Shown one piece after another: positions 10 through 15,800 of a DNA stretch of 64,000 nt. The DNA lies in contig JACQRC010000100.1 of the NCBI GenBank assembly GCA_016206665.1, positions 33-64,032 on the forward strand, given 5' to 3'. Position numbers and translations under genes: made by a program. Origin of the DNA: Candidatus Omnitrophota bacterium (GTDB taxonomy: Bacteria; Omnitrophota; Gorgyraeia; Aquiviventales; JACQRC01). Every line of letters starts with the position of its first letter. Position 1 is the stretch's first letter. The notes under the pieces were generated by a model, which worked only from the letters and a program-made list of their open reading frames with translations, had not been told where the DNA came from and did not search any database.

Positions 10-2532
10 ATGCAATCCAGGGGTTGTCGAATAGTGGTACGTCACCGCCTCGGTGCCCGACTCGTGCTGGCCCTCGGCCTGTGGCTATGGCTGGCCCCGC
101 CCGCCTTCGCCCGGACCGCCACGTGGGATGGGGGGGGCGGCGATAATCTCGATTCCACGGCGGCGAACTGGGATTCAGATACCTTGCCGGTCGCTGGCGA
201 TGATATCGTCTTCAACGGCACCAGTACCACAAATTGTAATTGGGGCAATCTCGGGCTCGGGTACAACTCCTTCTCCATGAATGCCGGCTATACCGGGACG
301 GTATCGGGCGGGGATGTTCTCGCCGACACGATCACCGTCTCCTCGGGCACCCTGACGCAGGCAGCGGGTGGTGTCGTGGGTGATTCGGGTGGTGGCAGCG
401 TGAACACGCTGACCATCAACAGCGGTGCGACGTTCACGGCAGGCGGTTCCTGGATCACCGATTCCAACTCGACGCTGACGTTAAACGGCGCGGTCACCTT
501 CAACGGCAATGGTAGTACCTTAAGCGGCCCGACCACGATCGGGGGGACCATGACAGTCGTCTCACCGCTCACCATCTCATTTGCGTCGCCTACTGCCTTC
601 ACGCTGAACTCGGGTGGGACCATCAACGGCGCCGGCACGGTCAGCTATTCCCGTATTGTTGCTCCCACGCTGAATGGCACGATCACCATGCAGTCCGGCT
701 CCACCTTTGGGACGTTCCGGTATACCGTCGGGACGGCGGCCGTGCCCACCCTCACCGTGCCGGCCACGACGTATACGAGTCACCTGGACCTGAGACCGGC
801 GAACGTCAATGCCACCTACACCATTGGAGCTGGGACGCTCTCGGTCGCGGGCAACTTCCGCATGGACCATTCCACTGCCGGCAAGACGACGACGGTGACC
901 AACGCGACGAACAACACCCCGATCACGGTCGGCGGCAACTGGGATGATGATGGCACCGCCGGCTCTGCCACCTACACCCCTGGCACCGAGACGGTGACCT
1001 TCGATGGCAGCGGTGCGACCGGCACCATCACCATTGACACGACGAACATCACCACCACCTGGTACAACGTCACCTTCAACGAAAGCGGCACCACCTTCAA
1101 CGTCACCGGCACCGCCACGGTCACCGGCGCCTTGACGGTGGGCAGCGGCACCACCCTCGACATCGATGGGGACATGACCATAACCGCGAGTGGTTCGTCC
1201 ATCGACAACAGCGGCACGATCGATGAGACCGAAGGCCAGCTCCTCCATCCCGCCACCTCGCTGAAGCTCACCGACCAAGACGGCAACGAAGTCGCCGACT
1301 ACGACTTCGGGGCCGAGTCAGTCTACGTGACGTTGGTGGACGAGGATGAGAATCTGAACGGCACGAGTGCGGATACCGCCAACGGGGTGACGGTCACCTG
1401 CGGCAGTGACAGCGAGGCGATGTCCGGGAGCTTCCTCTTGACCGAAACCGGCGCCAAGACCGAGACCTTCCGCAACACGACCGCGCTGCCCACCCGGCTG
1501 CTGACCACGAGCCAGAGTCCCACGACCAACAACAGCAAGCTCGAGTGCCGGCCCACCGATACCATCTCGGTGGCCTACACCGACCAGGAGGATAGTACCG
1601 ACAACACCGGCACCGATACGACCACCGTCAACCCCGCCGGCGTCATCACGATCGGCCAGACGCTGAACAAGACGAAAGCCACCCCGGGGGAGCCGGTCCT
1701 CGTCACCGTCACCCTCACCAATAACGGGGCGGATAGCTACACCTTCAATGTGGAAGACAGCCTGCCCGCCGGCTTCGCCTTCAAGGAGGGCTCCGCCGCG
1801 CTCGATGGCGCCGCCGTGAGTCCCAGCTCGACAGGGAATCCGCTGGTCTTCAGTTCCATCACCACCACCGCGAACCAGGTCCGGACCCTCAAATACCTCC
1901 TCACCATCGGCAGCGTGCCGCCGGGCCAGTACATCAACTCGCTCATCGCGCGGCAAAATCCGGTCATCTCCAACCTCTCGGCCGTGACGCTCACGGTCGT
2001 GCCGGATCCGCTCTTCACCCTCGCCACCCTCCTCGGCAAGGTCTTCGTGGATGCCAACGCCAATGGCCGGCAGGACCGCCACGAACCCGGCCTCGCCGAT
2101 ATCCGCCTCGCCACCGAAGAAGGCGTCACCGTCACGACCGACACGGCGGGTCGCTTCCATCTGCCGGATCTCTTGCCCGGCCGGCATCTGCTCAAGCTCG
2201 ATCAAACCACCCTGCCCCCTGGGGCGACCCTCACCACGGAACATACCCGGCTCATCACGGCGACGGATGGCTCCTTGAGTAAGGTCAACTTCGGCGTCCG
2301 CCTGCCGTCAACAACGAACAGCGTCCTAAGTCCTAAGTCCGAAGTCCTGAGTCGCTCACCCGCGGAAACCGACATCGGACATAGGACGTTCTACCGCCTT
2401 GCGCGAGTTGGCCGTGACGCAGCTGCCGGCGGTGGCGCAGCCGCGGTTGGCCGTGAGCGTCTCGCCGGCCACGGTGCAGCTCACCCGCGAGGGCCGGTTC
2501 GCGGAGCCGGTGACGTTTACCATCAGCTGTAA
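10..2532 (+). CDS. Large secreted surface/adhesin-like protein, paralog A (frame-1 part; authentic sequence probably ends near nt 2350, the rest looks like out-of-frame read-through)
   Basis: ORF track 840 aa. Signal-like N-terminus LVLALGLWLWLAPPAFA. T/S/N/G-rich repetitive N-terminal half typical of beta-helix adhesins. DUF11-like repeat (VTLTNNGADSYTFNVEDSLPAGFAF). SdrD-B/Cna-B-like module (GKVFVDANANGRQDRHEPGLADIRL...TDTAGRFHL). Collinear with paralog B (2773..5337) up to KVNFGVRL. After the heptamer tract at 2323..2353, frame 1 turns Ala/Gly/Arg-rich with no counterpart in paralog B. GTG at 34 is an alternative start. Confidence 0.8.
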   Translation: MQSRGCRIVVRHRLGARLVLALGLWLWLAPPAFARTATWDGGGGDNLDSTAANWDSDTLPVAGDDIVFNGTSTTNCNWGNLGLGYNSFSMNAGYTGTVSGGDVLADTITVSSGTLTQAAGGVVGDSGGGSVNTLTINSGATFTAGGSWITDSNSTLTLNGAVTFNGNGSTLSGPTTIGGTMTVVSPLTISFASPTAFTLNSGGTINGAGTVSYSRIVAPTLNGTITMQSGSTFGTFRYTVGTAAVPTLTVPATTYTSHLDLRPANVNATYTIGAGTLSVAGNFRMDHSTAGKTTTVTNATNNTPITVGGNWDDDGTAGSATYTPGTETVTFDGSGATGTITIDTTNITTTWYNVTFNESGTTFNVTGTATVTGALTVGSGTTLDIDGDMTITASGSSIDNSGTIDETEGQLLHPATSLKLTDQDGNEVADYDFGAESVYVTLVDEDENLNGTSADTANGVTVTCGSDSEAMSGSFLLTETGAKTETFRNTTALPTRLLTTSQSPTTNNSKLECRPTDTISVAYTDQEDSTDNTGTDTTTVNPAGVITIGQTLNKTKATPGEPVLVTVTLTNNGADSYTFNVEDSLPAGFAFKEGSAALDGAAVSPSSTGNPLVFSSITTTANQVRTLKYLLTIGSVPPGQYINSLIARQNPVISNLSAVTLTVVPDPLFTLATLLGKVFVDANANGRQDRHEPGLADIRLATEEGVTVTTDTAGRFHLPDLLPGRHLLKLDQTTLPPGATLTTEHTRLITATDGSLSKVNFGVRLPSTTNSVLSPKSEVLSRSPAETDIGHRTFYRLARVGRDAAAGGGAAAVGRERLAGHGAAHPRGPVRGAGDVYHQL
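2323..2353 (+). repeat. Imperfect heptanucleotide tandem repeat GTCCTAA GTCCTAA GTCCGAA GTCCTGA GTC inside paralog A
   Basis: Read directly from the sequence. 7-nt period, 4 units plus a partial unit. Locally AT-richer than the surrounding gene. Coincides with the reading-frame change of paralog A. Confidence 0.9.
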
Positions 2533-2776
2533 CTATCCGCAGTTCATTACCCAGTGGACCCTCGTCGTGGCGCAGGATGAGCATTGGCTGGTCAAGGTCT
2601 TTACCGGCACAGGCCCACCGCCGACCACCCTGACGTGGCACGGTGAACTCGACACCGGTACCCTCGAGCCCTCGTTGTACCTGTACCGTCTCTTTGTGTG
2701 GGATCAGAAGCAGCATGAGGATTTTACACCGTTGCAGAGTGTTGAGGTGAGAAACGGGGGGGCGGTCACGCCGTGA
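2351..2776 (+). CDS. C-terminal Ig-like domain segment of paralog A, encoded in the +1 frame relative to 10..2532
   Basis: Frame is open from 2351 (ORF track calls 2399..2776). Translation ...LRELAVTQLPAVAQPRLAVSV...LYLYRLFVWDQKQHEDFTPLQSVEV is collinear with the C-terminus of paralog B. Stop TGA 2774..2776 overlaps the paralog B start (GTGATGA). Confidence 0.65.
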   Translation, partial: VAHPRKPTSDIGRSTALRELAVTQLPAVAQPRLAVSVSPATVQLTREGRFAEPVTFTISCNYPQFITQWTLVVAQDEHWLVKVFTGTGPPPTTLTWHGELDTGTLEPSLYLYRLFVWDQKQHEDFTPLQSVEVRNGGAVTP

Positions 2777-5337
2777 TGAGACGCCGCCTCGTCCTAGCCC
2801 TTCTGGTCGGTCTGGCGTGGGCCCCGCCGGCCTTCGCCGCCACGCGGACCTGGGATGGCGGGGGAGGCGACGCCAACGCCTCGACCGCGGCGAACTGGAG
2901 CGCGGATACGGCGCCGGTGGCTGCGGATGACGTCGTCTTCGACGGCACCAGCACCAAGGACTGCACGTGGGACTTAGCCCTCTCGGTGGCTTCGGTGTCG
3001 TTGAATAGCGGCTACACGGGCACCGTGACAGAGACCGCCGCGCTCACGGCGACCAGCAGCATGACCATCTCCGCAGGCGCCTGGAACATCAATAGCGGCA
3101 TCACTCTGACCAGCTCCGGCGCCACCTTCACGTTGAACTCGGGCGGCACCCTCAGCGGCACGGGCACCATCAACCGGACCAACACCACCGCCCCGACCCT
3201 CAGCGGGACGATTAACATGCAGTCGGGGACGACCTTTGGGACCTTCCGGTATACCCTGACGAGTAACGCGACCATCCCCGCCGCGACCTACACCAGCGAC
3301 CTCTCGCTGCGCGGTGGCTCAGGGGCCGGCACCCGCACCTTCACGGTCGGCGCCGGCACCTTGACCGTGGCGGGGAACCTGGATCTCGACAAGGCCACGC
3401 TCGGCTCCACGATGCTGCTGACCAACGCCACCAACAACACCAACCTCACCATCGGCGGCAACTGGGATGACGCCGGCCAAGCCGGCCTCAGCACCTACAC
3501 CGCCGGCACCGAGACGGTGACGTATAATGGCAGCGGGGCTACCGGCACGGTGACCCTTGACATAGTCAATTTCGTCACCACTTGGAACAACGTGACGTTC
3601 AATGAGAGTGGCACCACCTTCAACATCACCGAGGCCGCGACGATCACCGGGGCCTTGACCGTGGGTAGTGGAACCACCTTGGACATCGGCGGCGAGCTGG
3701 TCATGACCGCCAGCGGCTCCTCGATTGACAACAGCGGCACGATCGATGAGACCGGCGTCGATCAGGACGGCGACCCGGTCAAGATCACGCATCCGGCCAC
3801 CTCCTGCAAGCTCACCGACAAGGACGGTAACGAAGTTGCCGGCTACGCCCTCAAGGACGATCTCCTCTACGTGACGTTGGTCGATGAGGATGAGAACCTC
3901 AATGGCACGGCGGCGGATACCGCCAACGGGGTCACGGTCTCGATCTCCGGCGGCGATAGCGAGACGATGAGCGGGACGTACATCCTCACCGAGACCGGAG
4001 CGAAGACCGAGACCTTCCGCAACACGACCGGCCTGCCCACCGCGCTCCTCCAAGCCGGCCAGACCGGCACCGCCAATAACGGCGTCTTGGAGCTCCTGGC
4101 CACGGATACCATCTCCGTGGCCTACACCGATGGGGAAGACAGCACCGACAACGCCGCCAGCGATACCGCCGCCACCCAGACCGTGGGCGCGAGCCTCCTC
4201 ACCATCGGCCAGAGCCTCAGCAGTACCCGCGTCAGCCCGGGTCAGCCCGTGGCGGTCACGGCGACGCTCACCAACAACCAAACGACCAACGCCCTCACCT
4301 TCCGGGTGGAAGATACCCTGCCGGTCGGCTTCGTCTTCCAAGCGGGCAGTGCGGCCCTCGATGGCGTGGCCATGACGCCGACCGTCGCCGACCAGACGCT
4401 GACCTTCTCCAATATCACCGTCAATGCCACCGCCTCCAGGACGCTCCGGCTGCTCCTGATTCCTGGCAGCCTCACGCCAGGGGAATACATCAATAGGATG
4501 CTCGCGCGCATTAACCCCGTGATCTCGAACGTCAGTCAAGTCACGATCACCGTGACCCCTGACCCGCTCTTCACGCTCTCCACGCTGCTCGGCAAGGTCT
4601 TCGTGGATGCCAACGGCAATGGAAGACAAGATCGGGACGAACCGGGCCTCGCCGATATCCGCCTGGCCACCGAAGAAGGCGTGACCGTGACCACGGATAC
4701 CGCCGGCCGCTTCCATCTGCCGGATCTGCTCCCGGGCCGGCATTTGCTCAAACTCGACCGCACCACCTTGCCCCCCGGAGCGTCCCTGACCACGGAACAT
4801 ACCCGGCTCATCACGGCGACCGATGGCTCGCTCAGCAAAGTCAACTTTGGGGTGCGGCTGGGGCGGGAGGCCAGGAGCCAGCAATCAGCAATCAGCAATC
4901 AGCAATCAGCAGCCATCAGCCTGCCGAAGGAGTTACCCGTCACAGATCTCTCCGTCACCCAGCTGCCGGCGGTGGCGCGGCCGATCTTGGCGATTCGGGT
5001 GGAGCCACCGATCCTACGCATCGAGCAGACCAGCCTGGCAGAGCCGGCCGTCTTTCGCATTGACTGCAACTATCCGTTCTTCGTGAAGGCGTGGATCATT
5101 GCGATTGCCACGGATGACGAGCAGCTGCTCCAGACGCTCACCGGGGCCGGGCCGCCGCCAGCCTCGGTGGAATGGGATGGCCGATTAGAGGTGGGGGAGC
5201 TGCTCGCGGGCCGCAGCTACCGCTATCGGCTCTTTGTTTGGAATGGAGAGGGGCGCCAGGATTTCACCTCCTTACAGCGGTTTACCGTCGAGCTCTATCA
5301 ACCTCCGGCCACAGCAGTTTCCAAAACTTTCCCTTGA
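2773..5337 (+). CDS. Large secreted surface/adhesin-like protein, paralog B (intact; DUF11-like repeat, SdrD-B-like module, C-terminal Ig-like domain)
   Basis: ORF track 854 aa. Start is GTG 2773 or ATG 2776. Signal-like LVLALLVGLAWAPPAFA followed by TRTWDGGGGD as in paralog A. VTATLTNNQTTNALTFRVEDTLPVGFVF (DUF11-like). GKVFVDANGNGRQDRDEPGLADIRL... (SdrD-B-like). C-terminal WDGRLEVGELLAGRSYRYRLFVWNGEG motif typical of FlgD-Ig-like domains. Confidence 0.85.
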   Translation: MMRRRLVLALLVGLAWAPPAFAATRTWDGGGGDANASTAANWSADTAPVAADDVVFDGTSTKDCTWDLALSVASVSLNSGYTGTVTETAALTATSSMTISAGAWNINSGITLTSSGATFTLNSGGTLSGTGTINRTNTTAPTLSGTINMQSGTTFGTFRYTLTSNATIPAATYTSDLSLRGGSGAGTRTFTVGAGTLTVAGNLDLDKATLGSTMLLTNATNNTNLTIGGNWDDAGQAGLSTYTAGTETVTYNGSGATGTVTLDIVNFVTTWNNVTFNESGTTFNITEAATITGALTVGSGTTLDIGGELVMTASGSSIDNSGTIDETGVDQDGDPVKITHPATSCKLTDKDGNEVAGYALKDDLLYVTLVDEDENLNGTAADTANGVTVSISGGDSETMSGTYILTETGAKTETFRNTTGLPTALLQAGQTGTANNGVLELLATDTISVAYTDGEDSTDNAASDTAATQTVGASLLTIGQSLSSTRVSPGQPVAVTATLTNNQTTNALTFRVEDTLPVGFVFQAGSAALDGVAMTPTVADQTLTFSNITVNATASRTLRLLLIPGSLTPGEYINRMLARINPVISNVSQVTITVTPDPLFTLSTLLGKVFVDANGNGRQDRDEPGLADIRLATEEGVTVTTDTAGRFHLPDLLPGRHLLKLDRTTLPPGASLTTEHTRLITATDGSLSKVNFGVRLGREARSQQSAISNQQSAAISLPKELPVTDLSVTQLPAVARPILAIRVEPPILRIEQTSLAEPAVFRIDCNYPFFVKAWIIAIATDDEQLLQTLTGAGPPPASVEWDGRLEVGELLAGRSYRYRLFVWNGEGRQDFTSLQRFTVELYQPPATAVSKTFP
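4879..4920 (+). repeat. Heptanucleotide tandem repeat (CAGCAAT)x4 followed by degenerate CAGCAGC CATCAGC inside paralog B
   Basis: Read directly: four perfect units at 4879..4906. Translated in frame as SQQSAISNQQSAAIS. Sits at the same linker position as the 2323..2353 tract of paralog A. Confidence 0.9.
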
Positions 5338-5415: not shown

Positions 5416-8400
5416 ATGCTCACCCGACCAGGGTGGGGAATCGTAGGCATCTGGTGCGCAGCGCTCTTGACGGCTCCTGCGCCGAGTTGGGCCGAGGGCT
5501 TTCCGCAACTCAACATGAGCCAACCCGGCCCGCAGCAGACGATTCCTGTCTCCGGCAACCTCATCCGCGTTGAAGGCTACGTCCCCCCACGACATGAACT
5601 CCGCATCAACGACCGCACCGCGCCCGTCTCCCGCGAACGCAAATTTTCCACCGAGCTGATTCTGCCGCAGGGCGAGCACGCCATCGATGTGGAGGTGGTT
5701 GACCCTGCGGGCCAGGTCTACCGCGAGACCAAGCCGGTGACGGTGAACGACCATTATCTCTTCTTCGTGTCGCTGAGCGAAGCGGAGCTCGGCCATCTCG
5801 CGGCGAAGGGGCAGGTGGGGTCGCTCACCAATGAGGATCGGCAGCGGATGGAGCGGGAGATCTACTTCGACGGCCGCGTCGCCTACTACCTCAAGGCCAA
5901 GGTCAAGGGCAAGTACCTGGTGACCTCCAGCTACGACATCGATCGGGAGCGCAAGGAGCTGTTCCGCAACTTGGAGCCGGAAGATTTTTATCCCATCTAC
6001 GGCGACAACTCGACGATCAACTATGACGCGGCGAACACGCAGGACCGGCTGTACCTGCTCGTCGAATCCGGCAAGTCGTCCTTCTTGTGGGGCAATTATG
6101 GCACGGGCCTCACCGGCACCGAGTTTGCCCGGTACAACCGGACCTTAAGCGGCGGCAAGCTCCATTACGAATCGGTGGCGACCTCCCAGCGCGGCGATCC
6201 CAACACCCTGCTGATTCTCTTTTCCGCTGCGGCGCGGCAATTAGCGGCGCATGACGATCTGCGCGGCACCGGCGGCAGCCTCTACTACCTGAAGAACAAG
6301 GACGTCATCCAGGGCAGCGAGAAACTGTCGCTCGAAATCCGGGATGAGACGACCGGGACGACGATCAGCCGGCAGCCGTTGGCCGTCGGCGCCGATTACG
6401 AGATCGACTACGACCAGGGGCGCCTCCTGATGACGCGGCCGGTGCCTTCGGTGTCGCAGGGGACCGATTTCTCCATCATCTCGACGAATATTCTCAACGG
6501 GAATCCCGTCGTGTTAGTGGCGGAGTATGAGTACAAGCCCTCGGCCACGATGAAGGATGAGACGTTCGGGAGCCGCGTGGCCCGGCAGTTCGGTCCGGTC
6601 CGGCTGGGCGGGACGCTGCTGCGCGAGACGCAGCAGAGCGCCGACTACGAACTGCGCGGACTCGACGCGGCCATTGACCTGCCGGCCCAGACCCGGGTGA
6701 GCGGCGAGTATGCCCTCTCGCAGGTCTCCAGCGCCCGCCAGAACTTCTCCTCCGACGGGGGCATCACCTTCACGAGCATCACGCAGCCGGGCGCCGGCAC
6801 AAAAGGGGAGGCCTACAAGATCGAGGCGACCGCCCAACCATTCAAAGGCACGACCATGACAGGGTTCCACCGTCAGGTGGACCAGGACTTCTCCAACACC
6901 GGCTCCGCCTTTGAGGCCGGCACCATCAAGACCGGCGGCTCCGTGACCCAGCGGTTGGGCCCCAACACGACGGTCAGCGCCTCCCACGTCCTGCAGCGGC
7001 TCGTCAAGGACGGCAACCAGCAATCGTCGCAGAACGTCGGCTCGCAGCGCGAGCGGACGACGAGCGTCCAGGCGACGCATCAGGTCGGCAAGTTGGGGCT
7101 GACGGGGGAGTACCGCCATCTGGACAAGAATCAACCCCTGAACGCCGCGACCAAACAGCAACAGGATCTGGCCGCGGCCCGGGTGAGCTATCAGGTCACG
7201 CCGAAGTGGAACGTCTACGCGCAGGACCAGGTGACGTTGCGCGGCGACAACTCGAACCAGGGGCAGGTCGGCACGACCTTCGCGCTCGCCGACAAGACGA
7301 CGGTGAGTCTCTCGCAGGCGGTGGGGAATCAGGGCGACGCCACCCAGTTTGGCCTCGAGCGTCAGTTGGATCCTCATTCTTCGCTCTACACGCACTACAC
7401 CCTGACCCAGCAGCCGTCCGGCCTCAAGCAGGCCACGACCACCTTCGGCGGCCGCACCAAGATGAATGACCGGACCTCGTTGTATACCGAGCAGGAGTAC
7501 CGCACCTATCCGGGCACGACGCAGTCCGCGAATATTCTCGGCGCGGGCACGCAGGTGAACGACCGGCTCTACCTCGACGCCTCCGTCGAGCGCTCGCACA
7601 CCGACACCAACGTTCAGGACTCGACGAACAACGCCGTCAAGTTGGGGCTCAACTACATCGACATTGATTGGATCAAGGCCTCGACGAGCGGCGAGCTGCG
7701 GTTCACCGAAGCGCCCACCCATGAGCGGCAGGTGGTCACAAAGAACGTCGTCGAGCTGCATCCGTCCAAGGAGTGGTCGTTGTTGGGCCGGTATGAGTAC
7801 GCGCCGACCCGCAACACCGTCACCGACACGAATCTCGCCCGCTTCCAGGAGTTGCATCTGGGGGCGGCCTACCGGCCGACGCGGTGGGATTGGCTCAACT
7901 GGTTGGGCCGCTACGTCCGTCTGGAAGATAAAGCCCCCGCCTCTCAGGCCGACACGACCGGCTCGATCTCGCGGACGAGCCAGATTTACTCCACCGAGGC
8001 CGTCATCGATCTGCCGGGGAATTTTGAGCTGGCTGAAAAGTTTGCCCGTAGGGACCGGCAGGAGCAGCTCGCCGGCATCGCCGGGCAGACGAACACGCAG
8101 ACCTACCTCTGGGTCAATCGGCTGACCTATCATCTGACGGATCGCTGGAACCTCATCGGCGAGTACCGGCTGTTGCGGCAGCGGCAGGCCGACGACGCCA
8201 GGCAGGGCGTGTTGTTGGAGGTGGACCGCAACTTCTTCAACACCGTCCGGGTGGGCGCAGGCTATAACTTCACCAACTTCCGCGACGACTTGACCGGGGC
8301 GAACGACTTCGACGCGCACGGCTTGTTCGTACGGCTGACGGGGACACTGACCGACCAGAGTCTCGACGATGTCCAGCGGTTCCTGCAACGCCACTGGGAG

Positions 8401-8751
8401 CAGAAGATCAACGCCTACGCGGAGGCCCTGCTGCGCGCCCGTCTCCAGCTGCCCGGCGACACGACATTAGCCGAGATGAGCCGCGACCTCGACGTGGCCC
8501 GTCAGGCGATGGCGGCAGGCGAGTTTGAGACGGCGCTGCAGCGCTACCATCAGATTCTGGCCAAGCACACCGCGCTCCGGTTGCATGCGCGCACCCTCAT
8601 TGACCAGCACATGGCCCAGGAGGCGGCAGCGCACCAGGCGTTGCGGCAAGCCCGGCAGAGTTTGCGCGCCGGATATCTCGAAGAGGCGGCCGCCCAATTT
8701 CAGCAGGCGAAAGCCCAGGCGCAGGGGTTGAGGCAGGCCCCATTACAATGA
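5416..8751 (+). CDS. Very large predicted outer-membrane beta-barrel protein with N-terminal Ig-like segment and C-terminal helical tail
   Basis: ORF track 1111 aa. Signal-like N-terminus GIVGIWCAALLTAPAPSWA. About 850 aa of Y/T/S/Q/G/N/R-rich alternating-strand sequence ending in an OMP-type terminal strand (VRVGAGYNFTNF...HGLFVRLTGTL). Last ~150 aa are Ala/Gln/Arg/Leu-rich and helical. Confidence 0.6.
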   Translation: MLTRPGWGIVGIWCAALLTAPAPSWAEGFPQLNMSQPGPQQTIPVSGNLIRVEGYVPPRHELRINDRTAPVSRERKFSTELILPQGEHAIDVEVVDPAGQVYRETKPVTVNDHYLFFVSLSEAELGHLAAKGQVGSLTNEDRQRMEREIYFDGRVAYYLKAKVKGKYLVTSSYDIDRERKELFRNLEPEDFYPIYGDNSTINYDAANTQDRLYLLVESGKSSFLWGNYGTGLTGTEFARYNRTLSGGKLHYESVATSQRGDPNTLLILFSAAARQLAAHDDLRGTGGSLYYLKNKDVIQGSEKLSLEIRDETTGTTISRQPLAVGADYEIDYDQGRLLMTRPVPSVSQGTDFSIISTNILNGNPVVLVAEYEYKPSATMKDETFGSRVARQFGPVRLGGTLLRETQQSADYELRGLDAAIDLPAQTRVSGEYALSQVSSARQNFSSDGGITFTSITQPGAGTKGEAYKIEATAQPFKGTTMTGFHRQVDQDFSNTGSAFEAGTIKTGGSVTQRLGPNTTVSASHVLQRLVKDGNQQSSQNVGSQRERTTSVQATHQVGKLGLTGEYRHLDKNQPLNAATKQQQDLAAARVSYQVTPKWNVYAQDQVTLRGDNSNQGQVGTTFALADKTTVSLSQAVGNQGDATQFGLERQLDPHSSLYTHYTLTQQPSGLKQATTTFGGRTKMNDRTSLYTEQEYRTYPGTTQSANILGAGTQVNDRLYLDASVERSHTDTNVQDSTNNAVKLGLNYIDIDWIKASTSGELRFTEAPTHERQVVTKNVVELHPSKEWSLLGRYEYAPTRNTVTDTNLARFQELHLGAAYRPTRWDWLNWLGRYVRLEDKAPASQADTTGSISRTSQIYSTEAVIDLPGNFELAEKFARRDRQEQLAGIAGQTNTQTYLWVNRLTYHLTDRWNLIGEYRLLRQRQADDARQGVLLEVDRNFFNTVRVGAGYNFTNFRDDLTGANDFDAHGLFVRLTGTLTDQSLDDVQRFLQRHWEQKINAYAEALLRARLQLPGDTTLAEMSRDLDVARQAMAAGEFETALQRYHQILAKHTALRLHARTLIDQHMAQEAAAHQALRQARQSLRAGYLEEAAAQFQQAKAQAQGLRQAPLQ

Positions 8752-10019
8752 CAGCGAACGGACGGCTCATGATGATGGTGATCGCCGTGGCGGCCTCGCT
8801 GGCCCCTAACGGTACGCCGGCCTTCGCAGCCGAGAAGCAGTCGCCCACCATTCCCACCAAGGGGTACAAGTATAATCTCGAGGCGATCATCAAGCAGGCG
8901 GAGCAGGGGTTGAAGGAAGCCGAGCACCAACTCGAGGAGCAGCGGCGCGCGGCGGAGCGCGCAAAAGAAGCCGAGGCGCTCCACACCCAAGTGGATGAGG
9001 CGAATCAGTTGTTAGAGGCCGGTCAGTACGTGCAGGCCAAAGCGAGTTTTGAGCGCATCCTGGCCACGGCCAAGGATCCGGCTATGCGTCAGGCGATGCG
9101 CCCGCTGCGCGAGCGGGCCGAGGCCCTCGAGCGGCAGGCCCAGCAGGAGCAGCGAGCAGCAAGCAGCCAGCAGCAAGCAGCACGAGCGGCCGAGCAGCGA
9201 CGACAACAACAGCAGCAAGTAGCGAGCAGCAAGCAGCAAGTAGCAAAAGAAAAAGAACAACGGCGACGACAGGAACGCGAACGTCGTGCCCAGGCCCGCG
9301 CCGAACGGCAGCGTCAACGGGAGTTAGTCAAACGGCAACGAGCCGAGGAACTACAGCAGCAACGCACCCGTCGAGAGCAAACCCAAGCAGAGGCGCAAGC
9401 ACAGCGCGCGCAGCAACAGGCCGAACAAGCGGAACAGCGACGTCTTCGTGAAGCACGGCGTCGCCAGGCGGAGGACCAGGCCCGGCAAGCCCGCGCTCAG
9501 CGAGAGGCCGAGCTCGCCAAACAGCACGAGGAGCGCCGACAGGCCGAGCAACGGCATGTTCAGGAACGCGCCGAGCGGGCCCGTGCCGAGACGGCGCGGA
9601 AAGCTGAAGTCAGACGGCAGGCCGAGGAGCGCCAGGCCCAGGCCCGCGCTGAGCGGCAGCGTCAACAGGAATTAGTCAAACGGCAACGAGCCGAAACACT
9701 GCAGCAACAACGCGCCACCGAGGCCCGCCAGGCGGAACAGGCTCGGCGGGCCAGGCAGCGCCAACGGCAGCGCCCCAAACCCCAATCATCACTGAACAGC
9801 GAGCGGCAAGCAGCGAGCAGCAAGCAGACAGCAGCCAGCACCCAGCCGGCGACGCAGGTCAAGGCCCAACGCGCCGCCGCCATGGAGGCGGCCGCCAGAG
9901 GGGCCCGCCTCCGCGCGCAGGAACGCCAACGCGTGATGGAGCGGGCGATGGACCGCCTCCACCGAGCCGATCGCGCCTCGTCGGCCCGCAACACCACCGC
10001 TACCTCCCCCCAACCGTAA
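8748..10019 (+). CDS. Secreted Q/R/E/A-rich coiled-coil protein
   Basis: ORF track 423 aa. ATG 8748 overlaps the upstream stop (ATGA). Signal-like MMMVIAVAASLAPNGTPAFA. More than 300 aa of charged Gln/Arg/Glu/Ala low-complexity helix-type sequence with an internal duplication. Confidence 0.7.
   Translation: MTANGRLMMMVIAVAASLAPNGTPAFAAEKQSPTIPTKGYKYNLEAIIKQAEQGLKEAEHQLEEQRRAAERAKEAEALHTQVDEANQLLEAGQYVQAKASFERILATAKDPAMRQAMRPLRERAEALERQAQQEQRAASSQQQAARAAEQRRQQQQQVASSKQQVAKEKEQRRRQERERRAQARAERQRQRELVKRQRAEELQQQRTRREQTQAEAQAQRAQQQAEQAEQRRLREARRRQAEDQARQARAQREAELAKQHEERRQAEQRHVQERAERARAETARKAEVRRQAEERQAQARAERQRQQELVKRQRAETLQQQRATEARQAEQARRARQRQRQRPKPQSSLNSERQAASSKQTAASTQPATQVKAQRAAAMEAAARGARLRAQERQRVMERAMDRLHRADRASSARNTTATSPQP
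9148..9245 (+). repeat. Two tracts with 7-nt periodicity (AGCAGCN x5 at 9148..9182; AGCAGCA AGTAGCG AGCAGCA AGCAGCA AGTAGCA at 9211..9245)
   Basis: Read directly from the sequence. Encodes AASSQQQAA... and QQVASSKQQVAKEK. Confidence 0.8.
9291..9716 (+). repeat. Two ~78-bp direct repeats (9291..9368 and 9639..9716), 348 bp apart, inside the coiled-coil gene
   Basis: CAGGCCCGCGC(C/T)GA(A/G)CGGCAGCGTCAAC...TTAGTCAAACGGCAACGAGCCGA... occurs twice. Protein-level repeat AQARAERQRQ(R/Q)ELVKRQRAE(E/T)LQQQR. Confidence 0.85.
9797..9845 (+). repeat. Seven consecutive CAGNNAG-type heptamers (CAGCGAG CGGCAAG CAGCGAG CAGCAAG CAGACAG CAGCCAG CACCCAG)
   Basis: Read directly from the sequence. Encodes SERQAASSKQTAASTQ. 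Confidence 0.75.
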
Positions 10020-10088: not shown

Positions 10089-11393
10089 ATGGACCTTTGT
10101 GTGATCGGGGCCGGACATGTCGGACTGGTGACCGGGGCCTGTTTCGCCGAATTAGGCCACCACGTCATCATCGTGGACAACGACGCGGCCAAGATTCGGC
10201 AGTTGAAGCGGGGTCGCCTGCCCTTCTTTGAGCCGGGGCTGGAGGAGCTGGTCCACCGGACCGTGGCGGAGCGGCGCCTGCGGTTCACCGCCACGCTGGC
10301 GGAAGGGGTGCGCGCCTCCCTCATCATCTTTATCGCCGTGGGGACGCCGCAGAAGCCCAGCGGGGAAGCCGACTTGACGCACGTTGAGCACGTCACGCGG
10401 GGGATCGCCGCTCATCTGACCGGCTACCGCCTCATCGTCGAGAAGTCCACGGTGCCCGTCGAGACGGGGCAGTGGATCCAGCACACGCTGCGGACCTACA
10501 CGCGGCGGAAGGTTCCCTTCGACGTCGCCTCCAACCCCGAATTTCTGCGGGAGGGGACCGCGATCCAAGACCTCCTGCATCCCGACCGGATCGTGCTCGG
10601 CGTCGAGACGGCGCGGGCCAAGGAGCTCCTGCTCCAGCTCTATAAACCGTTGAACGCCCCCCTCGTGGTCACCGACATCCGCTCCGCGGAATTGATCAAG
10701 CACGCCTCCAATTCCTTCCTCGCCACCAAGATCTCCTTCATCAACGCGATTGCGCGCCTCTGCGAGCTGGTCGGCGCCGACGTGGTGAAGGTGGCCGAGG
10801 GGATGGGCCTCGATCCGCGGATCGGCCCGGCGTTTCTTTCGGCCGGCCTGGGCTTCGGGGGCTTCTGCCTGCCCAAGGACATCGATGCCTTTGTCCATCT
10901 GGCCGACAAGGTGGGCTACGACTTCGCCCTGCTGAAGGCGGTCAAGCAGATCAATGACGAGGCGCGCGAGCACTTCGTCCGCAAGATCGAGCAGGCCCTC
11001 TGGGTGGTCAAGGACAAGACGATCGCCATCCTGGGGCTGTCCTTCAAACCGGATACCGACGACATGCGCTATGCCCCCGCGCTCGACGTTATCCGTGCAC
11101 TGCAGCATGACGGGGCACGCATCCGGGCCTTCGACCCGCAGGCCATGGCCCACGCCGACGGCCTGCTGCCGAAGGTGACGATGTGCCGCGACCCCTACGA
11201 CGCCGCCAAAGGGGCCGACTGCCTCGCCATCGTGACGGATTGGAACGAGTTCAAGGAGCTGGATTTCAAGCGGTTGAAGCGGTTGCTGCGGCAACCGCTC
11301 ATTGTCGACGGCCGCAACGTCTACGACGCGGCCGTCCTGCGTCGCCTGGGCTTCCGCTATATCAGCGTCGGCCGCCGCGACGTCAGCGCCTGA
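10089..11393 (+). CDS. ugd: UDP-glucose 6-dehydrogenase
   Basis: 434 aa. N-terminal MDLCVIGAGHVGLVTGACFAELGHHV Rossmann motif. Central GFGGFCLPKD catalytic-Cys motif. Typical UDP-glucose/GDP-mannose dehydrogenase family layout. Confidence 0.9.
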   Translation: MDLCVIGAGHVGLVTGACFAELGHHVIIVDNDAAKIRQLKRGRLPFFEPGLEELVHRTVAERRLRFTATLAEGVRASLIIFIAVGTPQKPSGEADLTHVEHVTRGIAAHLTGYRLIVEKSTVPVETGQWIQHTLRTYTRRKVPFDVASNPEFLREGTAIQDLLHPDRIVLGVETARAKELLLQLYKPLNAPLVVTDIRSAELIKHASNSFLATKISFINAIARLCELVGADVVKVAEGMGLDPRIGPAFLSAGLGFGGFCLPKDIDAFVHLADKVGYDFALLKAVKQINDEAREHFVRKIEQALWVVKDKTIAILGLSFKPDTDDMRYAPALDVIRALQHDGARIRAFDPQAMAHADGLLPKVTMCRDPYDAAKGADCLAIVTDWNEFKELDFKRLKRLLRQPLIVDGRNVYDAAVLRRLGFRYISVGRRDVSA

Positions 11394-11403
11394 CGGAACG
11401 TTC

Positions 11404-12720
11404 ATGGCCTCCACCTCCCTCACCCTCCTCCAACGCCGCCTGATGAGCCACCACGCCACGATTGGCATCGTCGGCTTGGGCTATGTGGGCCTACCGCTGG
11501 CGGTCGGCTTCGCGCGCGCCGGCTTTTCCGTCATCGGCATCGATGTGGATGCCAAGCGTGTGGCCGCGGTCAATCGGGGCGACTCCTACATCCTCGACAT
11601 TGCCGGAGCCGATCTGCGCCCGCTCGTGCGCGCAGGCTCGCTGCGCGCCACCGCCGAGGAGCGCGCGTTGGACCGCTGCGACGTGGTCATCATCTGCGTG
11701 CCCACGCCGTTGCGCAAGACCCGCGAGCCGGACATCTCCTTCATCGTCGACGCCGCCGACCGGATCGCGCGCCATCTGCACCGCGGAGAGCTGATCATCC
11801 TGGAGAGCACCACCTATCCCGGTACCACGGAGGAGTTGATTCTGCCCCGCCTGGACGGGCGCCGGTTCAAGGTGGGGCGGGACTTCTTCCTCGCCTTTTC
11901 GCCGGAGCGGGTGGACCCGGGCAACCGGCAGTTCACGACGACGAACATCCCGAAGGTGGTGGGGGGGCAGACGCCGCGCTGTTCGGCGCTCGCGAAGCGG
12001 CTCTATGAGCAGATCGTGCCGCGCGTCGTGACGGTGTCGTCGACCCGCGCCGCCGAGATGGTGAAGCTGCTCGAGAACACCTTCCGCAGCGTCAACATCG
12101 GCCTCGTCAACGAAATGGCCCTCATGTGCCACCGGTTGAATCTCAATGTCTGGGAGATTATCGACGCGGCCAAGACGAAGCCCTTCGGCTTCATGCCCTT
12201 CTACCCGGGGCCGGGGCTGGGCGGCCACTGCCTGCCGATCGATCCGATCTATCTATCGTGGAAGGCGCGGATGCACGGCTTCGAGGCGCGCTTCATCGAG
12301 CTGGCCGCGCAGGTCAACGAGTACATGCCGCACTACGTCGTGGAGCGGCTGGGCGCGGCGCTCAATGAGGCCGGCCAGGCCCTCAAGGGCTCGCGCGTGC
12401 TGTTGGTGGGCATGGCCTACAAGAAGAATGTGAACGATATCCGCGAATCGCCCGCGCTGGAGATTGCCAGACTGTTAGGCGAGCGGGGGGCGAGGGTGGC
12501 CTACCATGATCCGCATGTGCCGGGCCTGCGGCTCGACGCCGTCTCGCTGCGATCGCAACCGCTGACGCCGGCCCTGCTGAAGCGGCAGCAGGCCGTCGTC
12601 ATCGTGACCGATCATGACCGCGTCAACTATGCGCGCCTGTTGCAGCATGCCCGGCTGGTGCTCGACACGCGCAACCGTCTCCACGGCGTCCGGGGACGCG
12701 CCAAGGTGGTGACCCTATGA
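11404..12720 (+). CDS. Nucleotide-sugar dehydrogenase, UDP-N-acetyl-hexosamine 6-dehydrogenase-like (WbpO/TviB/WecC type)
   Basis: ORF track starts at 11302, but ATG 11404 lies after the ugd stop and gives ...IGIVGLGYVGLPLAVGFARAGFSVIGIDVD. GLGGHCLPIDP catalytic-Cys motif. Confidence 0.8.
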   Translation: MASTSLTLLQRRLMSHHATIGIVGLGYVGLPLAVGFARAGFSVIGIDVDAKRVAAVNRGDSYILDIAGADLRPLVRAGSLRATAEERALDRCDVVIICVPTPLRKTREPDISFIVDAADRIARHLHRGELIILESTTYPGTTEELILPRLDGRRFKVGRDFFLAFSPERVDPGNRQFTTTNIPKVVGGQTPRCSALAKRLYEQIVPRVVTVSSTRAAEMVKLLENTFRSVNIGLVNEMALMCHRLNLNVWEIIDAAKTKPFGFMPFYPGPGLGGHCLPIDPIYLSWKARMHGFEARFIELAAQVNEYMPHYVVERLGAALNEAGQALKGSRVLLVGMAYKKNVNDIRESPALEIARLLGERGARVAYHDPHVPGLRLDAVSLRSQPLTPALLKRQQAVVIVTDHDRVNYARLLQHARLVLDTRNRLHGVRGRAKVVTL

Positions 12721-13655
12721 GCCTCTACCTGGTGACCGGCGGGGCCGGCTTCATCGGTTCGCACGTCGTCGACCGCCTCGTGGCCGACGGCGAGCAGGTC
12801 CGCGTCTTGGATGACCTCTCGACGGGCACACTGGGCAACTTGGCCGGCGTGCGCGGCCGGATCGAGTTTGTGCAGGCCGACATCCGCGACCGCGCGGCGG
12901 TGGCTGCGGCGGTTCGCGGCGTGGACTACGTGATTCACGAGGCGGCGTGGCGCAGCGTGCCCAAGTCGATGAGCGATCCCTGGGGCTACACCGAGGTCAA
13001 CGTGTTAGGGACGGTCAATCTCTTGGAGGCGGCGGCCAAAGCCAAGGTGAAGCAGGTGGCCAGCGTCTCCTCCAGCTCGGTCTACGGGGAGACGACCGTC
13101 ATGCCCCTCCGGGAGGATCTGCCGGCCAGTCCGATCTCGCCGTACGCGGCCTCGAAGTTGGCGGCGGAATTGATGTGCGGGTTGTTCAGCCGGGGCTTTG
13201 GCCTGCCGGCGGTGTCGGTCCGGTACTTCAATGTCTTCGGCCCGCGGCAGAGCCTCGACAACGAATATGCCGTCGTGGTGCCCAAGTTCATCGTCTGTCT
13301 GCTGCGCGGCGAATCCCCGCCGGTCTACGGCGACGGCCAACAGTCCCGGGACTTCACCTACATCGACAACGTCGTGGAGGCGACCATCCTCGCGGCCCGG
13401 ACGCCGGGCATCGGCGGGGAGGTGCTCAACGTGGCCCTCGGTGAAGAGCATTCGGTGCTGGACCTGCTCCGGGAACTGAACGCCATCCTGGGCCTGTCCA
13501 TCCCTCCGTCCCTGCAGCCGCCGCGTCCCGGCGATGTGCGCCGCACGCTCGCCGATCCCGCCAAGGCGCAGCGTCTGCTGCGGTGGCGCGGCCGCGTCGC
13601 CTTCGCGGAAGGCCTGCGCCGCACCGCCGCGTGGTTCCAAACCCATTCCGTCTGA
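12717..13655 (+). CDS. NAD-dependent nucleotide-sugar epimerase (WbpP/TviC-like SDR)
   Basis: 312 aa. ATGA overlap with the upstream gene. [12 protein letters not shown] glycine motif. YAASKLAAE (YxxxK). Sits next to the HexNAc dehydrogenase-like gene, as in WbpO/WbpP and TviB/TviC pairs. Confidence 0.7.
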   Translation: MSLYLVTGGAGFIGSHVVDRLVADGEQVRVLDDLSTGTLGNLAGVRGRIEFVQADIRDRAAVAAAVRGVDYVIHEAAWRSVPKSMSDPWGYTEVNVLGTVNLLEAAAKAKVKQVASVSSSSVYGETTVMPLREDLPASPISPYAASKLAAELMCGLFSRGFGLPAVSVRYFNVFGPRQSLDNEYAVVVPKFIVCLLRGESPPVYGDGQQSRDFTYIDNVVEATILAARTPGIGGEVLNVALGEEHSVLDLLRELNAILGLSIPPSLQPPRPGDVRRTLADPAKAQRLLRWRGRVAFAEGLRRTAAWFQTHSV

Positions 13656-13664
13656 CGGCCGCCC

Positions 13665-14792
13665 ATGAGCGTACCCTTCTTCGACCTCCGCCGGCAGTAC
13701 CGCGTGCTGCGCCCGGCGATGGACGCAGCCCTGCGACGCGTCTGTGCCAGCGGCGCCTTCATCCTGGGCCCGGAGGGGCGGGCGCTGGAGTCTGAATTGG
13801 CGCGCCTCTGCTGGGTGCCGCACGCCGTGGGGACGGCTTCAGGCACGGACGCCCTTGAGCTGGCGTTGCAGGCGCTTGGCCTCGGGCCGGGCGATGAGGT
13901 CATCACGACTCCGCTGACCTTCATTGCGACCGCCCAGGCCATTTCGCATACGGGGGCACGGCCCGTCTTCGCCGATGTCGATCCTGTCACCGCGACCCTC
14001 GACCCCGCGCGAGTGGCGCGTGCGATGACGCGTCGCACACGGGCGATCCTGCCCGTCCATCTCTACGGCCAACCCTGTGACATGGCCCCGCTGTTGCGGT
14101 TGGCGAAGCGGCGGGGCTTGCACGTCGTCGAAGATTGTGCCCAGGCCATTGGGGCGACCTTTCAGGGGCGGCCGGTCGGTTCCTTCGGCGACGCGGGGGC
14201 CTTCAGCTTTTATCCGACGAAGAATCTGGGGGCGTACGGCGATGCCGGTGCGGTCGTGACACGCTCCCGGGGGCTTGCCGCGCGGCTGCGGATGCTGCGC
14301 CAGCATGGCAGCGCCGATCGGGTCCGCTATCCCATGCTCGGCCGGAACTCGCGCCTCGATGAGCTCCAGGCGGCGGTGCTGCGGGTCAAGCTGCGGCATC
14401 TGCGGGCGTGGAACGTGGCGCGTCGCCGGCATGCCGCCACCTATCGCCGGCTCTTCAGACGCGCGGGGATCGCGGGAGCAGTGGGGCTGCCCGCCGAGCG
14501 GGCCGGCAGGCAGCACGTCTACCATCACTTCGTGATTCGGGTGCGGCGACGGGATGCGCTGCAGCGATACCTGGAGGGGCGGGGGATCGGTTGCGGCATC
14601 TACTATGCGCCGCCGCTCCATCTTCAGCCGCTCTATCGGGTGCTGGGCTACCGGCGCGGCGAGTTCCCCGTTGCGGAACGATTCAGTCAGGAGATCCTCT
14701 CTCTGCCGATGTACCCTGAATTGACCGCGAGCCAGCTGAGCCGGGTGGTGGATGCGGTTCGTGCCTTCATGCAGCGGAGAAGTACCAGTTGA
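13665..14792 (+). CDS. DegT/DnrJ/EryC1/StrS-family PLP-dependent sugar aminotransferase
   Basis: 375 aa. Family-typical N-terminus VPFFDLRRQY...ILGPEGRALESELA, TASGTDALELAL, and FSFYPTKNLGAYGDAG with Lys. Confidence 0.85.
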   Translation: MSVPFFDLRRQYRVLRPAMDAALRRVCASGAFILGPEGRALESELARLCWVPHAVGTASGTDALELALQALGLGPGDEVITTPLTFIATAQAISHTGARPVFADVDPVTATLDPARVARAMTRRTRAILPVHLYGQPCDMAPLLRLAKRRGLHVVEDCAQAIGATFQGRPVGSFGDAGAFSFYPTKNLGAYGDAGAVVTRSRGLAARLRMLRQHGSADRVRYPMLGRNSRLDELQAAVLRVKLRHLRAWNVARRRHAATYRRLFRRAGIAGAVGLPAERAGRQHVYHHFVIRVRRRDALQRYLEGRGIGCGIYYAPPLHLQPLYRVLGYRRGEFPVAERFSQEILSLPMYPELTASQLSRVVDAVRAFMQRRSTS

Positions 14793-14818
14793 CGGTGTGG
14801 GCAGGGGTTATGTACAAT
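14789..14818 (+). promoter_or_regulatory. Sigma70-like promoter candidate TTGACG-N18-TACAAT
   Basis: TTGACG at 14789..14794 (contains the stop TGA of the upstream gene) and TACAAT at 14813..14818. Lies in a 66-bp AT-richer gap. RBS AAGGAG at 14838..14843. Confidence 0.45.
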
Positions 14819-14849
14819 AGGACGTTCCAAATTTTTTAAGGAGCCATTC

Positions 14850-14864
14850 GTTCAACAAATGAAC
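14850..14864. promoter_or_regulatory. Palindromic operator-like site GTTCA-ACAAA-TGAAC overlapping the uxs start codon
   Basis: Read directly. Same GTTCA-N5-TGAAC architecture as the sites at 42286..42300 and 42321..42335. ATG 14859 is embedded in the site. Confidence 0.5.
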
Positions 14865-15800
14865 ATGCGGGTGCTCATCACAGGGGGCGCAGGATTCATC
14901 GGCTCCCACCTGTGCGAACGATTCCTCGCCGAAGGCCACACCGTGCTGTGCCTGGATAACTTCCTGACCGGCTCTGATGCCAATATCGCCCACCTGAAGG
15001 GCCAGCCGCGCTTTCAGCTCATCTTGCATAACATCGCCCAGCCCCTCGAGGTCGGCGGGAGCCTGGCCTACGTGCTCCACTTCGCCTCACCCGCCAGTCC
15101 CGTTGATTACCTGAAATTCCCTATTCAAACGTTGAAGGTCGGCTCCCTCGGCACGCTGAATGCCTTGGGCATTGCCAAGGCGAAGCGGGCCAAATTTTTG
15201 CTCGCCTCCACCTCGGAAGTGTATGGCGACCCCCAAGTCCATCCTCAGCCGGAGAGTTATTGGGGGCACGTCAACCCGGTCGGACCGCGCGGCGTCTATG
15301 ACGAGGCCAAGCGCTTCGCCGAGGCGTTGACGATGGCGTATCACCGCGAGCACGGCCTCGATACGCGGATCGCGCGCATCTTCAACACCTACGGACCGCG
15401 GATGCGCTTGAATGATGGTCGGGCCGTTCCCACCTTCATTGCCCAGGCGCTGCGCGGCGAGCCGCTCACCGTCTTTGGGGACGGCCGGCAGACCCGCAGC
15501 TTCTGCTACATCGACGACCTCGTTGAGGGCCTCCGGCGCGTGATGGATGCCGCCGTCCATGAGCCGATCAACGTCGGCAATCCCGACGAGCGGTCGATTC
15601 TGGAGATCGCCCAGCAGGTGCTGGCTTCCTGCAACGGCACGCAGAGCCGCGTGGAGTTCCGCCCGTTGCCGGAGGATGATCCCAAGCAGCGCCGGCCCGA
15701 TATCTCGAAGATCACCCGCCTGACGGGCTGGCAGCCGCGGGTCAGCCTCGATGAGGGATTGCCGGCGACGGTCGCCTGGTTCCGAGAGCATTGGAACTGA
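14859..15800 (+). CDS. uxs: UDP-glucuronate decarboxylase (UDP-xylose synthase)
   Basis: 313 aa. [64 protein letters not shown]...[12 protein letters not shown] is the characteristic UXS block. Confidence 0.88.

Follow-up and report, generated by a model that had tools for sequence, protein, structure and literature searches.

The analysed window, a 64,000-nt stretch of contig JACQRC010000100.1 from a metagenome-assembled genome (MAG) of Candidatus Omnitrophota (assembly GCA_016206665.1), opens with two tandem paralogous genes for putative secreted proteins, here termed paralogs A and B. The coding sequence of paralog A changes its reading frame in a repeat-bearing linker ahead of the C-terminal domain, and this frame change, its likely origin and its possible role as a switch are the subject of this report. 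The features concerned are the following, with positions counted from the first letter of the window and with frame 2 being +1 relative to frame 1.

Positions 10..2304, plus strand: body of paralog A in frame 1, with signal peptide, β-strand-rich, DUF11-like and SdrD_B-like regions, ending in ...KVNFGVRL.
Positions 2305..2413, plus strand: linker of paralog A, 109 nt (1 modulo 3); the linker of the ortholog is 45 nt and that of paralog B is 93 nt.
Positions 2323..2353, plus strand: main heptamer tract, composed of GTCCTAA (2323-2329), GTCCTAA (2330-2336), GTCCGAA (2337-2343), GTCCTGA (2344-2350) and GTC (2351-2353).
Positions 2344..2350, plus strand: unit 4 of the main tract, GTCCTGA, containing the last frame-2 stop; its deletion gives one open reading frame (ORF) of 919 amino acids (aa).
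Positions 2354..2532, plus strand: out-of-frame tail of the frame-1 ORF, RSPAETDIGHRTFYRLARVGRD...YHQL followed by the stop codon.
Positions 2371..2387, plus strand: second 7-nt tandem duplication, GACATCG GACATAG GAC, with 9/10 matches at lag 7.
Positions 2384..2773, plus strand: C-terminal domain of paralog A in frame 2, immunoglobulin (Ig)/FN3-like and distantly FlgD_ig-like, with no stop or indel.
Positions 2773..2779, plus strand: junction GTGATGA, in which the frame-2 stop TGA (2774..2776) overlaps the possible starts of paralog B, GTG (2773) and ATG (2776).
Positions 2773..5337, plus strand: paralog B, the intact full-length comparator, with DUF11, SdrD_B and a C-terminal Ig-like domain.

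The frame-1 ORF of paralog A (10..2532) encodes 840 aa, begins with a signal-like N-terminus that ends in AFA as judged by eye, and is 59% identical to paralog B (2773..5337) as far as KVNFGVRL (2304); against the ortholog on contig L003, which is described below, frame 1 shows 76% identity over 1504..2307. The frame-1 tail at 2354..2532 has no homolog and no counterpart in paralog B or L003, and its GC content by codon position (.95/.65/.54) is not coding-like. Frame 2 is open from 2351 to the TGA at 2774..2776, and its segment at 2405..2752 aligns with the C-terminus of paralog B at 44% identity (E=7e-33), the GC contents by codon position being.62/.45/.81 for this segment and.66/.46/.79 for the C-terminus of paralog B. 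From its GC content by codon position, frame 2 is the true coding frame in this region. The first-pass annotation of the window had described a heptanucleotide repeat at 2323..2353 at which paralog A leaves its frame, followed by an intact domain whose stop is coupled to the start of paralog B. The sequence and the coordinates of the repeat were confirmed and agree with Tandem Repeats Finder (TRF); the frame change in the linker is borne out by homology to paralog B in both frames and by the coding composition of frame 2, and the undamaged, coding-like domain and the coupling within GTGATGA were found as described. A search of 2200..2900 for promoter-like and terminator-like sites found none. 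In a gene map of the 64 kb based on GC content at third codon positions (GC3), paralog A is the only gene that is visibly split, and the quality of the assembly is therefore not generally poor.

An A-type ortholog occurs in two independent metagenome assemblies, L002 (JGI 3300025157) and L003 (Ga0137796; the longer contig). A profile search with the C-terminal domain found a 220-aa fragment (P0057), the contig of which is L002, and L003, the only close relative in the metagenome scan, belongs to the same population. In both contigs, the ORF of the ortholog is uninterrupted and its 15-codon linker, LPQPKAGGRAPLRELSVTQ, contains no heptamers; from approximately 2384 onward, the ortholog is 60-64% identical to frame 2 of paralog A. 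Because this ORF is uninterrupted in both L002 and L003, the fused protein represents the ancestral, normal state; the comparison with relatives proposed in the first-pass annotation thus yields an A-type gene that is in frame. The other 51 loci of the metagenome scan are similar in the SdrD_B-like part alone, their C-termini being unrelated, and a protein search with the restored C-terminal half of paralog A returned P0057 only. After the A-type gene, the relative carries two small minus-strand genes that are toxin-antitoxin-like (L002 682..1229; L003 1223..1767), and no B paralog. Either the A-B tandem is specific to the lineage of the window, or the copy in the relative is the last in its series.

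The frame change must fall within the linker at 2305..2413. At lag 7 this linker matches itself at 59/118 positions, compared with 22-32 at lags 3, 6, 8 and 9, and TRF describes the main tract with a period of 7, 4.4 copies, 87% matches and a score of 48. Stop codons are found in units 1 and 4 in frame 2 and in unit 2 in frame 3. In a perfect GTCCTAA array, each frame would meet a TAA in every third unit, and unit 3 has GAA exactly where frame 1 would meet TAA, which suggests a history of frame-1 translation sufficiently long for selection to have shaped the tract. The linkers of paralogs A (109 nt) and B (93 nt) are lineage-specific expansions that consist largely of 7-nt repeats.

Removal of the 7 nt at 2344..2350 gives one 919-aa ORF, as had been predicted. 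The proposal that the frame changes exactly at the main repeat holds only in part: the last frame-2 stop indeed lies in unit 4, but frame-2 homology to the ortholog starts only at approximately 2384, and hence the lesion may lie anywhere in approximately 2344..2384. The designation of unit 4 as the unique culprit did not stand, as removal of a unit of the second duplication at 2371..2384 or of a single nucleotide restores the frame as well. Loss of either unit of the GACATCG/GACATAG pair also leads to 919 aa, with a linker reading ...SRSPAETDIGRSTALREL..., and one ORF is likewise restored by 1-nt deletions anywhere in 2348..2404 and by 7-nt deletions that start at 2342 or later, except for a start at 2394. 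The in-frame junction of the restored protein would read ...SEVAHPRK... or ...AETDIGRSTALREL.... In the main tract only two adjacent units are identical, and unit 4, which matches no neighbouring unit exactly, is therefore not a fresh product of slippage. As candidates for the frameshift, the gain of unit 4 and that of a unit in the second tract rank equally; each supports a mechanism of heptamer duplication, and neither is proven over a 1-nt indel.

The coding sequence left behind the lesion is well preserved. Over 2351..2776, frame 2 comprises 141 codons with no stop or indel and with a GC3 of 0.81, and the residues that are invariant between paralog B and the ortholog (AEP, CNY, GPPP, RLFVW and DFT.LQ) are kept in paralog A. 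Stops, indels and a loss of coding composition, by which a decaying pseudogene is recognized, are absent from the domain. The Nei-Gojobori ω of the domain of paralog A is 0.30 against the ortholog and 0.40 against paralog B, and the intact DUF11 region gives 0.40 between A and B; as synonymous divergence (dS) is saturated, these values speak for long-term, not recent, constraint. With paralog B as the outgroup, the domain shows 12 A-specific and 5 ortholog-specific aa changes, compared with 15 and 23, respectively, in the upstream region (Fisher p=0.044), and third codon positions show no such bias toward the A branch. These counts give a weak hint that constraint on the domain of paralog A may have been relaxed, which would be compatible with a period without translation. 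Recent gene conversion between the two paralogs was also considered and is not indicated, with dS at 0.76-1.25 throughout.

Based on these observations, the best explanation, to which a probability of roughly 0.5 may be assigned, is that paralog A is a real and fairly recent frameshift allele that arose when a linker prone to heptamers gained 7 nt in tandem and that now encodes an 840-aa product without the Ig-like end domain. The normal form of A would be one secreted adhesin-like polypeptide composed of a signal peptide, a β-rich region, DUF11, SdrD_B, a short linker and the Ig/FN3-like domain. Its linker may have been enlarged by 7-nt tandem duplications to give the 4.4-unit GTCCTAA-type tract and the 2-unit GACATMG tract, and a single 7-nt gain, either unit 4 or a unit in the second tract, could have left the linker at 109 nt, that is, at 1 modulo 3. 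Such a gain could originate from slipped-strand or tandem-duplication mutation. Translation from the start of A would then run through 60 out-of-frame codons and end at 2530..2532 to form an 840-aa protein without the last domain. The coding sequence of the domain (approximately 2384..2773) would be left untranslated yet undamaged, and the allele could return to its earlier state if the appropriate 7 nt were lost. The gain of a 7-nt unit, already suspected in the first-pass annotation, is the most plausible lesion; we infer that such a gain rather than a 1-nt indel was the cause, that the event was recent, and that the truncated protein is the actual product. The fixed inactivating mutation that had been offered as an alternative comes close to this explanation, except that no damage has accumulated in frame 2 over 2351..2776.

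Four points weigh against the interpretation as a recent frameshift allele. With a saturated dS (~1.2), ω says little on the recent past, and the relative-rate signal is marginal. Paralog A is known from one MAG consensus, so that neither fixation nor heterogeneity is visible. Finally, the undamaged domain and the stop coupled to paralog B fit a partly expressed switch or a consensus error equally well.

It is possible, if unlikely, that paralog A is a true contingency (phase-variable) locus, in which slippage of the heptamers toggles the C-terminal Ig-like domain at high frequency and the MAG consensus represents the OFF state. The repeat lies inside an ORF and its unit length is not divisible by 3, the downstream domain is preserved and coupled to paralog B, and several features are those of a surface product, namely, the signal-like N-terminus, DUF11 and SdrD_B in paralog B, the Ig/FN3-like sandwich, and the polysaccharide cluster downstream. 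Heptamers also occur at the homologous site of paralog B (perfect, 4.7 units) and in the secreted-protein gene at 8748..10019, and nowhere else in the 64 kb. Experimentally variable simple sequence repeat (SSR) tracts are usually much longer than three units. A precedent is provided by hmw1a of Haemophilus influenzae PittAA, in which an intragenic (AATTTTG)14 tract gives a frameshift inside a large adhesin gene, and the tracts associated with hmw genes in H. influenzae contain 13-38 perfect units (PMC2651432). The tract of paralog A, however, consists of two identical adjacent units followed by two variants, with 87% unit identity, and falls below the threshold of at least three uninterrupted units for heptanucleotide SSRs in H. 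influenzae (PMC2651432), which the 4.7 perfect units of paralog B would pass.

The arrangement of stop codons in the tract also speaks against a switch in paralog A. When 20 deletions or duplications of contiguous unit blocks in the main tract were modelled, a full ORF was obtained in only two cases, namely, deletion of unit 4 (919 aa) and deletion of all four units (912 aa). Deletion of unit 1, 2 or 3 gives the right length with an in-frame TGA, and two-unit duplications, which are also of the right length, introduce in-frame stops. Since the units carry TAA or TGA and only 2/20 changes restore the ORF, reversible ON/OFF switching by simple slippage would be heavily constrained. Moreover, the unit whose loss would restore the frame is the one unlike every neighbouring unit, and the ortholog has no tract at all. 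Of the slippage switch put forward in the first-pass annotation, the heptamer gain remains plausible; the tract, with its two identical units and its 2/20 restoring block changes, makes a poor hypermutable sequence. It is too short and degenerate for a dedicated high-frequency switch, and a contingency switch is unproven for paralog A.

The repeats of paralog A belong to a local enrichment in period-7 sequences. Arrays were defined by at least 21/24 self-matches per scanned segment at lags 4 to 12, with 200 Markov-1 simulations for comparison. Lag-7 segments at this level occur at only three sites in the 64 kb (2323-2353, 4870-4921 and 9147-9182); no such segment was found at lags 4-6 and 8-12 in the 64 kb or in the 200 Markov-1 simulations, and a survey of related loci from other organisms, 459 kb in total, was likewise free of such arrays. 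The repeat is thus not a product of chance alone. Exact lag-7 runs of two units plus 2 nt are found only at 2323, 4879 and 9225. All three arrays lie within the first 10 kb, in paralog A, in paralog B and in the secreted coiled-coil-like ORF at 8748..10019, and none lies in the other 54 kb. One of them falls within the stretch of at most 80 nt in which paralog A has to switch its frame. A dispersed element or a transposon footprint was considered as the origin of the units and was rejected, as the rest of the window shows no over-representation of the 7-mers. The ORF at 8748..10019 carries three degenerate CAGCAAG-type arrays (9147..9182, 9213..9240 and 9797..9840), all of which are in frame; their unit is one base from the CAGCAAT unit of paralog B, which forms the following tract.

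Positions 4879..4911 (extended array 4870..4921), plus strand: heptamer tract of paralog B, perfect (CAGCAAT)4.7 followed by two degenerate units.

This tract directly follows KVNFGVRL, which is the position homologous to that of the tract in paralog A, and reads SQQSAISNQQSAAIS in translation. All three of its frames are free of stops. On modelling, 1, 4 or 7 units give the full-length protein, and other counts truncate it at approximately aa 760-776. The tract of paralog B is thus a better candidate for phase variation than that of paralog A. A wider proposal, in which the linkers of the whole paralog family act as contingency tracts (GTCCTAA-type in A, CAGCAAT in B, CAGCAAG-type in the adjacent gene), with A caught OFF and B caught ON and with the copy number deciding the attachment of the Ig-like domain for each paralog, is doubtful.

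An artefact of assembly, consensus or sequencing, with the real genome encoding an in-frame protein of ~919 aa, is improbable. The MAG has a single record, the downstream domain is without any damage, and the lesion sits among repeats, in which variants of different strains may be mixed. However, at 31 nt and 17 nt the repeats are much shorter than an Illumina read or the longest k-mers of an assembly, so that their collapse or expansion would not be expected, and there is no second split gene in the 64 kb; the assembly error that the first-pass annotation had also listed is unlikely on the same grounds. The MAG may belong to the groundwater study PMC7906910, in which 150-bp Illumina reads and MEGAHIT were used. 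The NCBI annotation of the deposited record is split likewise, as shown by its entries for the two paralogs.

HY597_06740 (MBI4356124): paralog A, annotated with an alternative start and a length of 832 aa.
HY597_06745, positions 2453..2776: part of the frame-2 ORF of paralog A, a 107-aa 'hypothetical protein' with a GTG start.
MBI4356126: paralog B, an unnamed DUF11 domain-containing protein.

HY597_06745 as a separate gene is an annotation artefact of the split gene A. Its GTG start cuts into the conserved N-terminal segment of the C-terminal domain. That an internal start, either this GTG at 2453 or the TTG at 2399, yields the domain as a small protein of its own is very improbable. The 107-aa gene is called by NCBI, an ORF at 2399..2776 was listed, and AGGA is located 11 nt upstream of the TTG at 2399; the product, however, would lack a signal peptide and thus be a cytoplasmic fragment of a secreted protein, initiation at the GTG would drop the conserved ELAVTQLPAVAQPRLA segment, neither the ortholog nor paralog B has the domain in an unfused form, and the search of 2200..2900 found no promoter-like site for such a gene. 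Programmed +1 ribosomal frameshifting that joins the two frames in translation, for example at CCC-G (2359..2362), is hardly credible. Frame 2 is +1, CCC G falls within the permissive interval and the domain is intact; however, 2344..2384 has neither a stop or rare codon for the A site nor, ahead of it, a Shine-Dalgarno-like stimulator of the prfB kind, and the ortholog lacks the site and keeps a single frame, so that the recoding signal is not conserved.

The proteins of paralogs A and B are known from one record each, that of the Omnitrophota MAG. Exact-product look-ups of A and B (with both possible starts), of a third protein, P0003, and of the 107-aa ORF revealed no further contig on record, and scans of genome contigs for another copy found nothing relevant. 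P0003 (MBI4355503.1) is a third, partial paralog, C, of 753 aa, with an A-like N-terminus and a B-like middle. Its contig of 3567 nt breaks off at ...RQDRHEP, just ahead of the linker, and its neighbouring accession number suggests that it comes from the same MAG. A distant homolog with 38% identity (P0004) has no C-terminal domain; given this protein, a truncated architecture is not absurd, but P0004 is too distant to bear on paralog A.

For the C-terminal domain itself, no significant family was found in Pfam or NCBIfam, and it was placed by profile search and fold instead of by a family model. The profile search against 1.8 billion representative proteins yielded 786 relatives, which are mostly tandem FlgD_ig arrays in proteins of 1000-1800 aa; in one example (P0052), the repeats are Pfam FlgD_ig and the protein ends in an OmpA domain. 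The AlphaFold (AF2) model of the domain of paralog B, with a predicted local distance difference test score (pLDDT) of 84.6, is an Ig/FN3-like β-sandwich and has generic matches only, namely, the Ig-like domain of PorU, GbpA and FN3 modules. On the strength of this model and the profile matches, the module can be named a predicted Ig/FN3-like domain that is distantly related to FlgD_ig repeats. A C-terminal sorting domain of the type IX secretion system was considered since relatives match CHU_C, and was discarded, as the domains of A and B do not match those models. At the start of the domain in paralog A (2402..2480), TRF reports a 39-nt two-copy repeat with 78% matches, LAVTQLPAVAQPR / LAVSVSPATVQLT. 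The ortholog seems to carry a similar duplication, in which case the duplication would be old.

Downstream of the paralogs, in the region 5416..10019, an ORF of 1111 aa shows a weak Glucodextran_B-like N-terminal match below the Pfam gathering score and overlaps by 4 nt (ATGA) the ORF of 423 aa at 8748..10019, which is secreted, Q/R/E-rich and coiled-coil-like. Both have signal-like N-termini and no family assignment, and they may belong to one surface structure together with A and B. The surface-protein genes are directly followed, at 10089..15800 on the plus strand, by a cluster for nucleotide-sugar and polysaccharide biosynthesis, including two NDP-sugar dehydrogenases, epimerases/dehydratases and a PseC/DegT-type aminotransferase.

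Should paralog A be no more than a frameshift allele, the finding is mainly of practical value, in that HY597_06740 and HY597_06745 represent a single broken gene. The more interesting point is that period-7 repeats are locally enriched in the linkers of three adjacent genes for secreted proteins; this suggests a mutational bias specific to the lineage or, alternatively, selection for repeats that shift the frame. If reads were to show length variation of the tracts, phase variation of surface-protein architecture by SSRs would reach an uncultured phylum that is not host-associated, and the locus would be a case of a switch that removes one domain rather than the whole protein. The literature on phase variation in Omnitrophica was searched, and nothing relevant was found.

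The locus can be compared with three known systems. Like hmw1a of H. influenzae PittAA, paralog A has a 7-nt unit in a large secreted adhesin-like ORF, the copy number of the unit sets the downstream frame, and the allele is out of frame. Unlike hmw1a-type tracts, that of A consists of 4.4 degenerate units, two of them identical, with stop codons inside, and most copy-number changes do not restore the frame. The host also differs, being an uncultured groundwater Omnitrophota MAG and not a pathogen, and the effect is confined to the last domain instead of extending to the whole protein. The short tandemly repeated repetitive (STRR) heptanucleotide arrays of heterocystous cyanobacteria are mostly intergenic and dispersed genome-wide; the window resembles them in its lineage-specific arrays of 7-nt units, whereas these arrays lie inside the coding linkers of three adjacent secreted-protein genes. 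As in ordinary frameshift pseudogenes, the gain of a short direct repeat in A gives a truncated ORF and an orphan ORF that are annotated as two hypothetical proteins, yet the orphan part is undecayed and coupled to paralog B, and the linkers of both paralogs are visibly built of heptamers. Paralog A is accordingly filed as a tandem-duplication frameshift in a surface-protein gene, with the same mechanism as the intragenic SSR frameshifts in adhesin genes.

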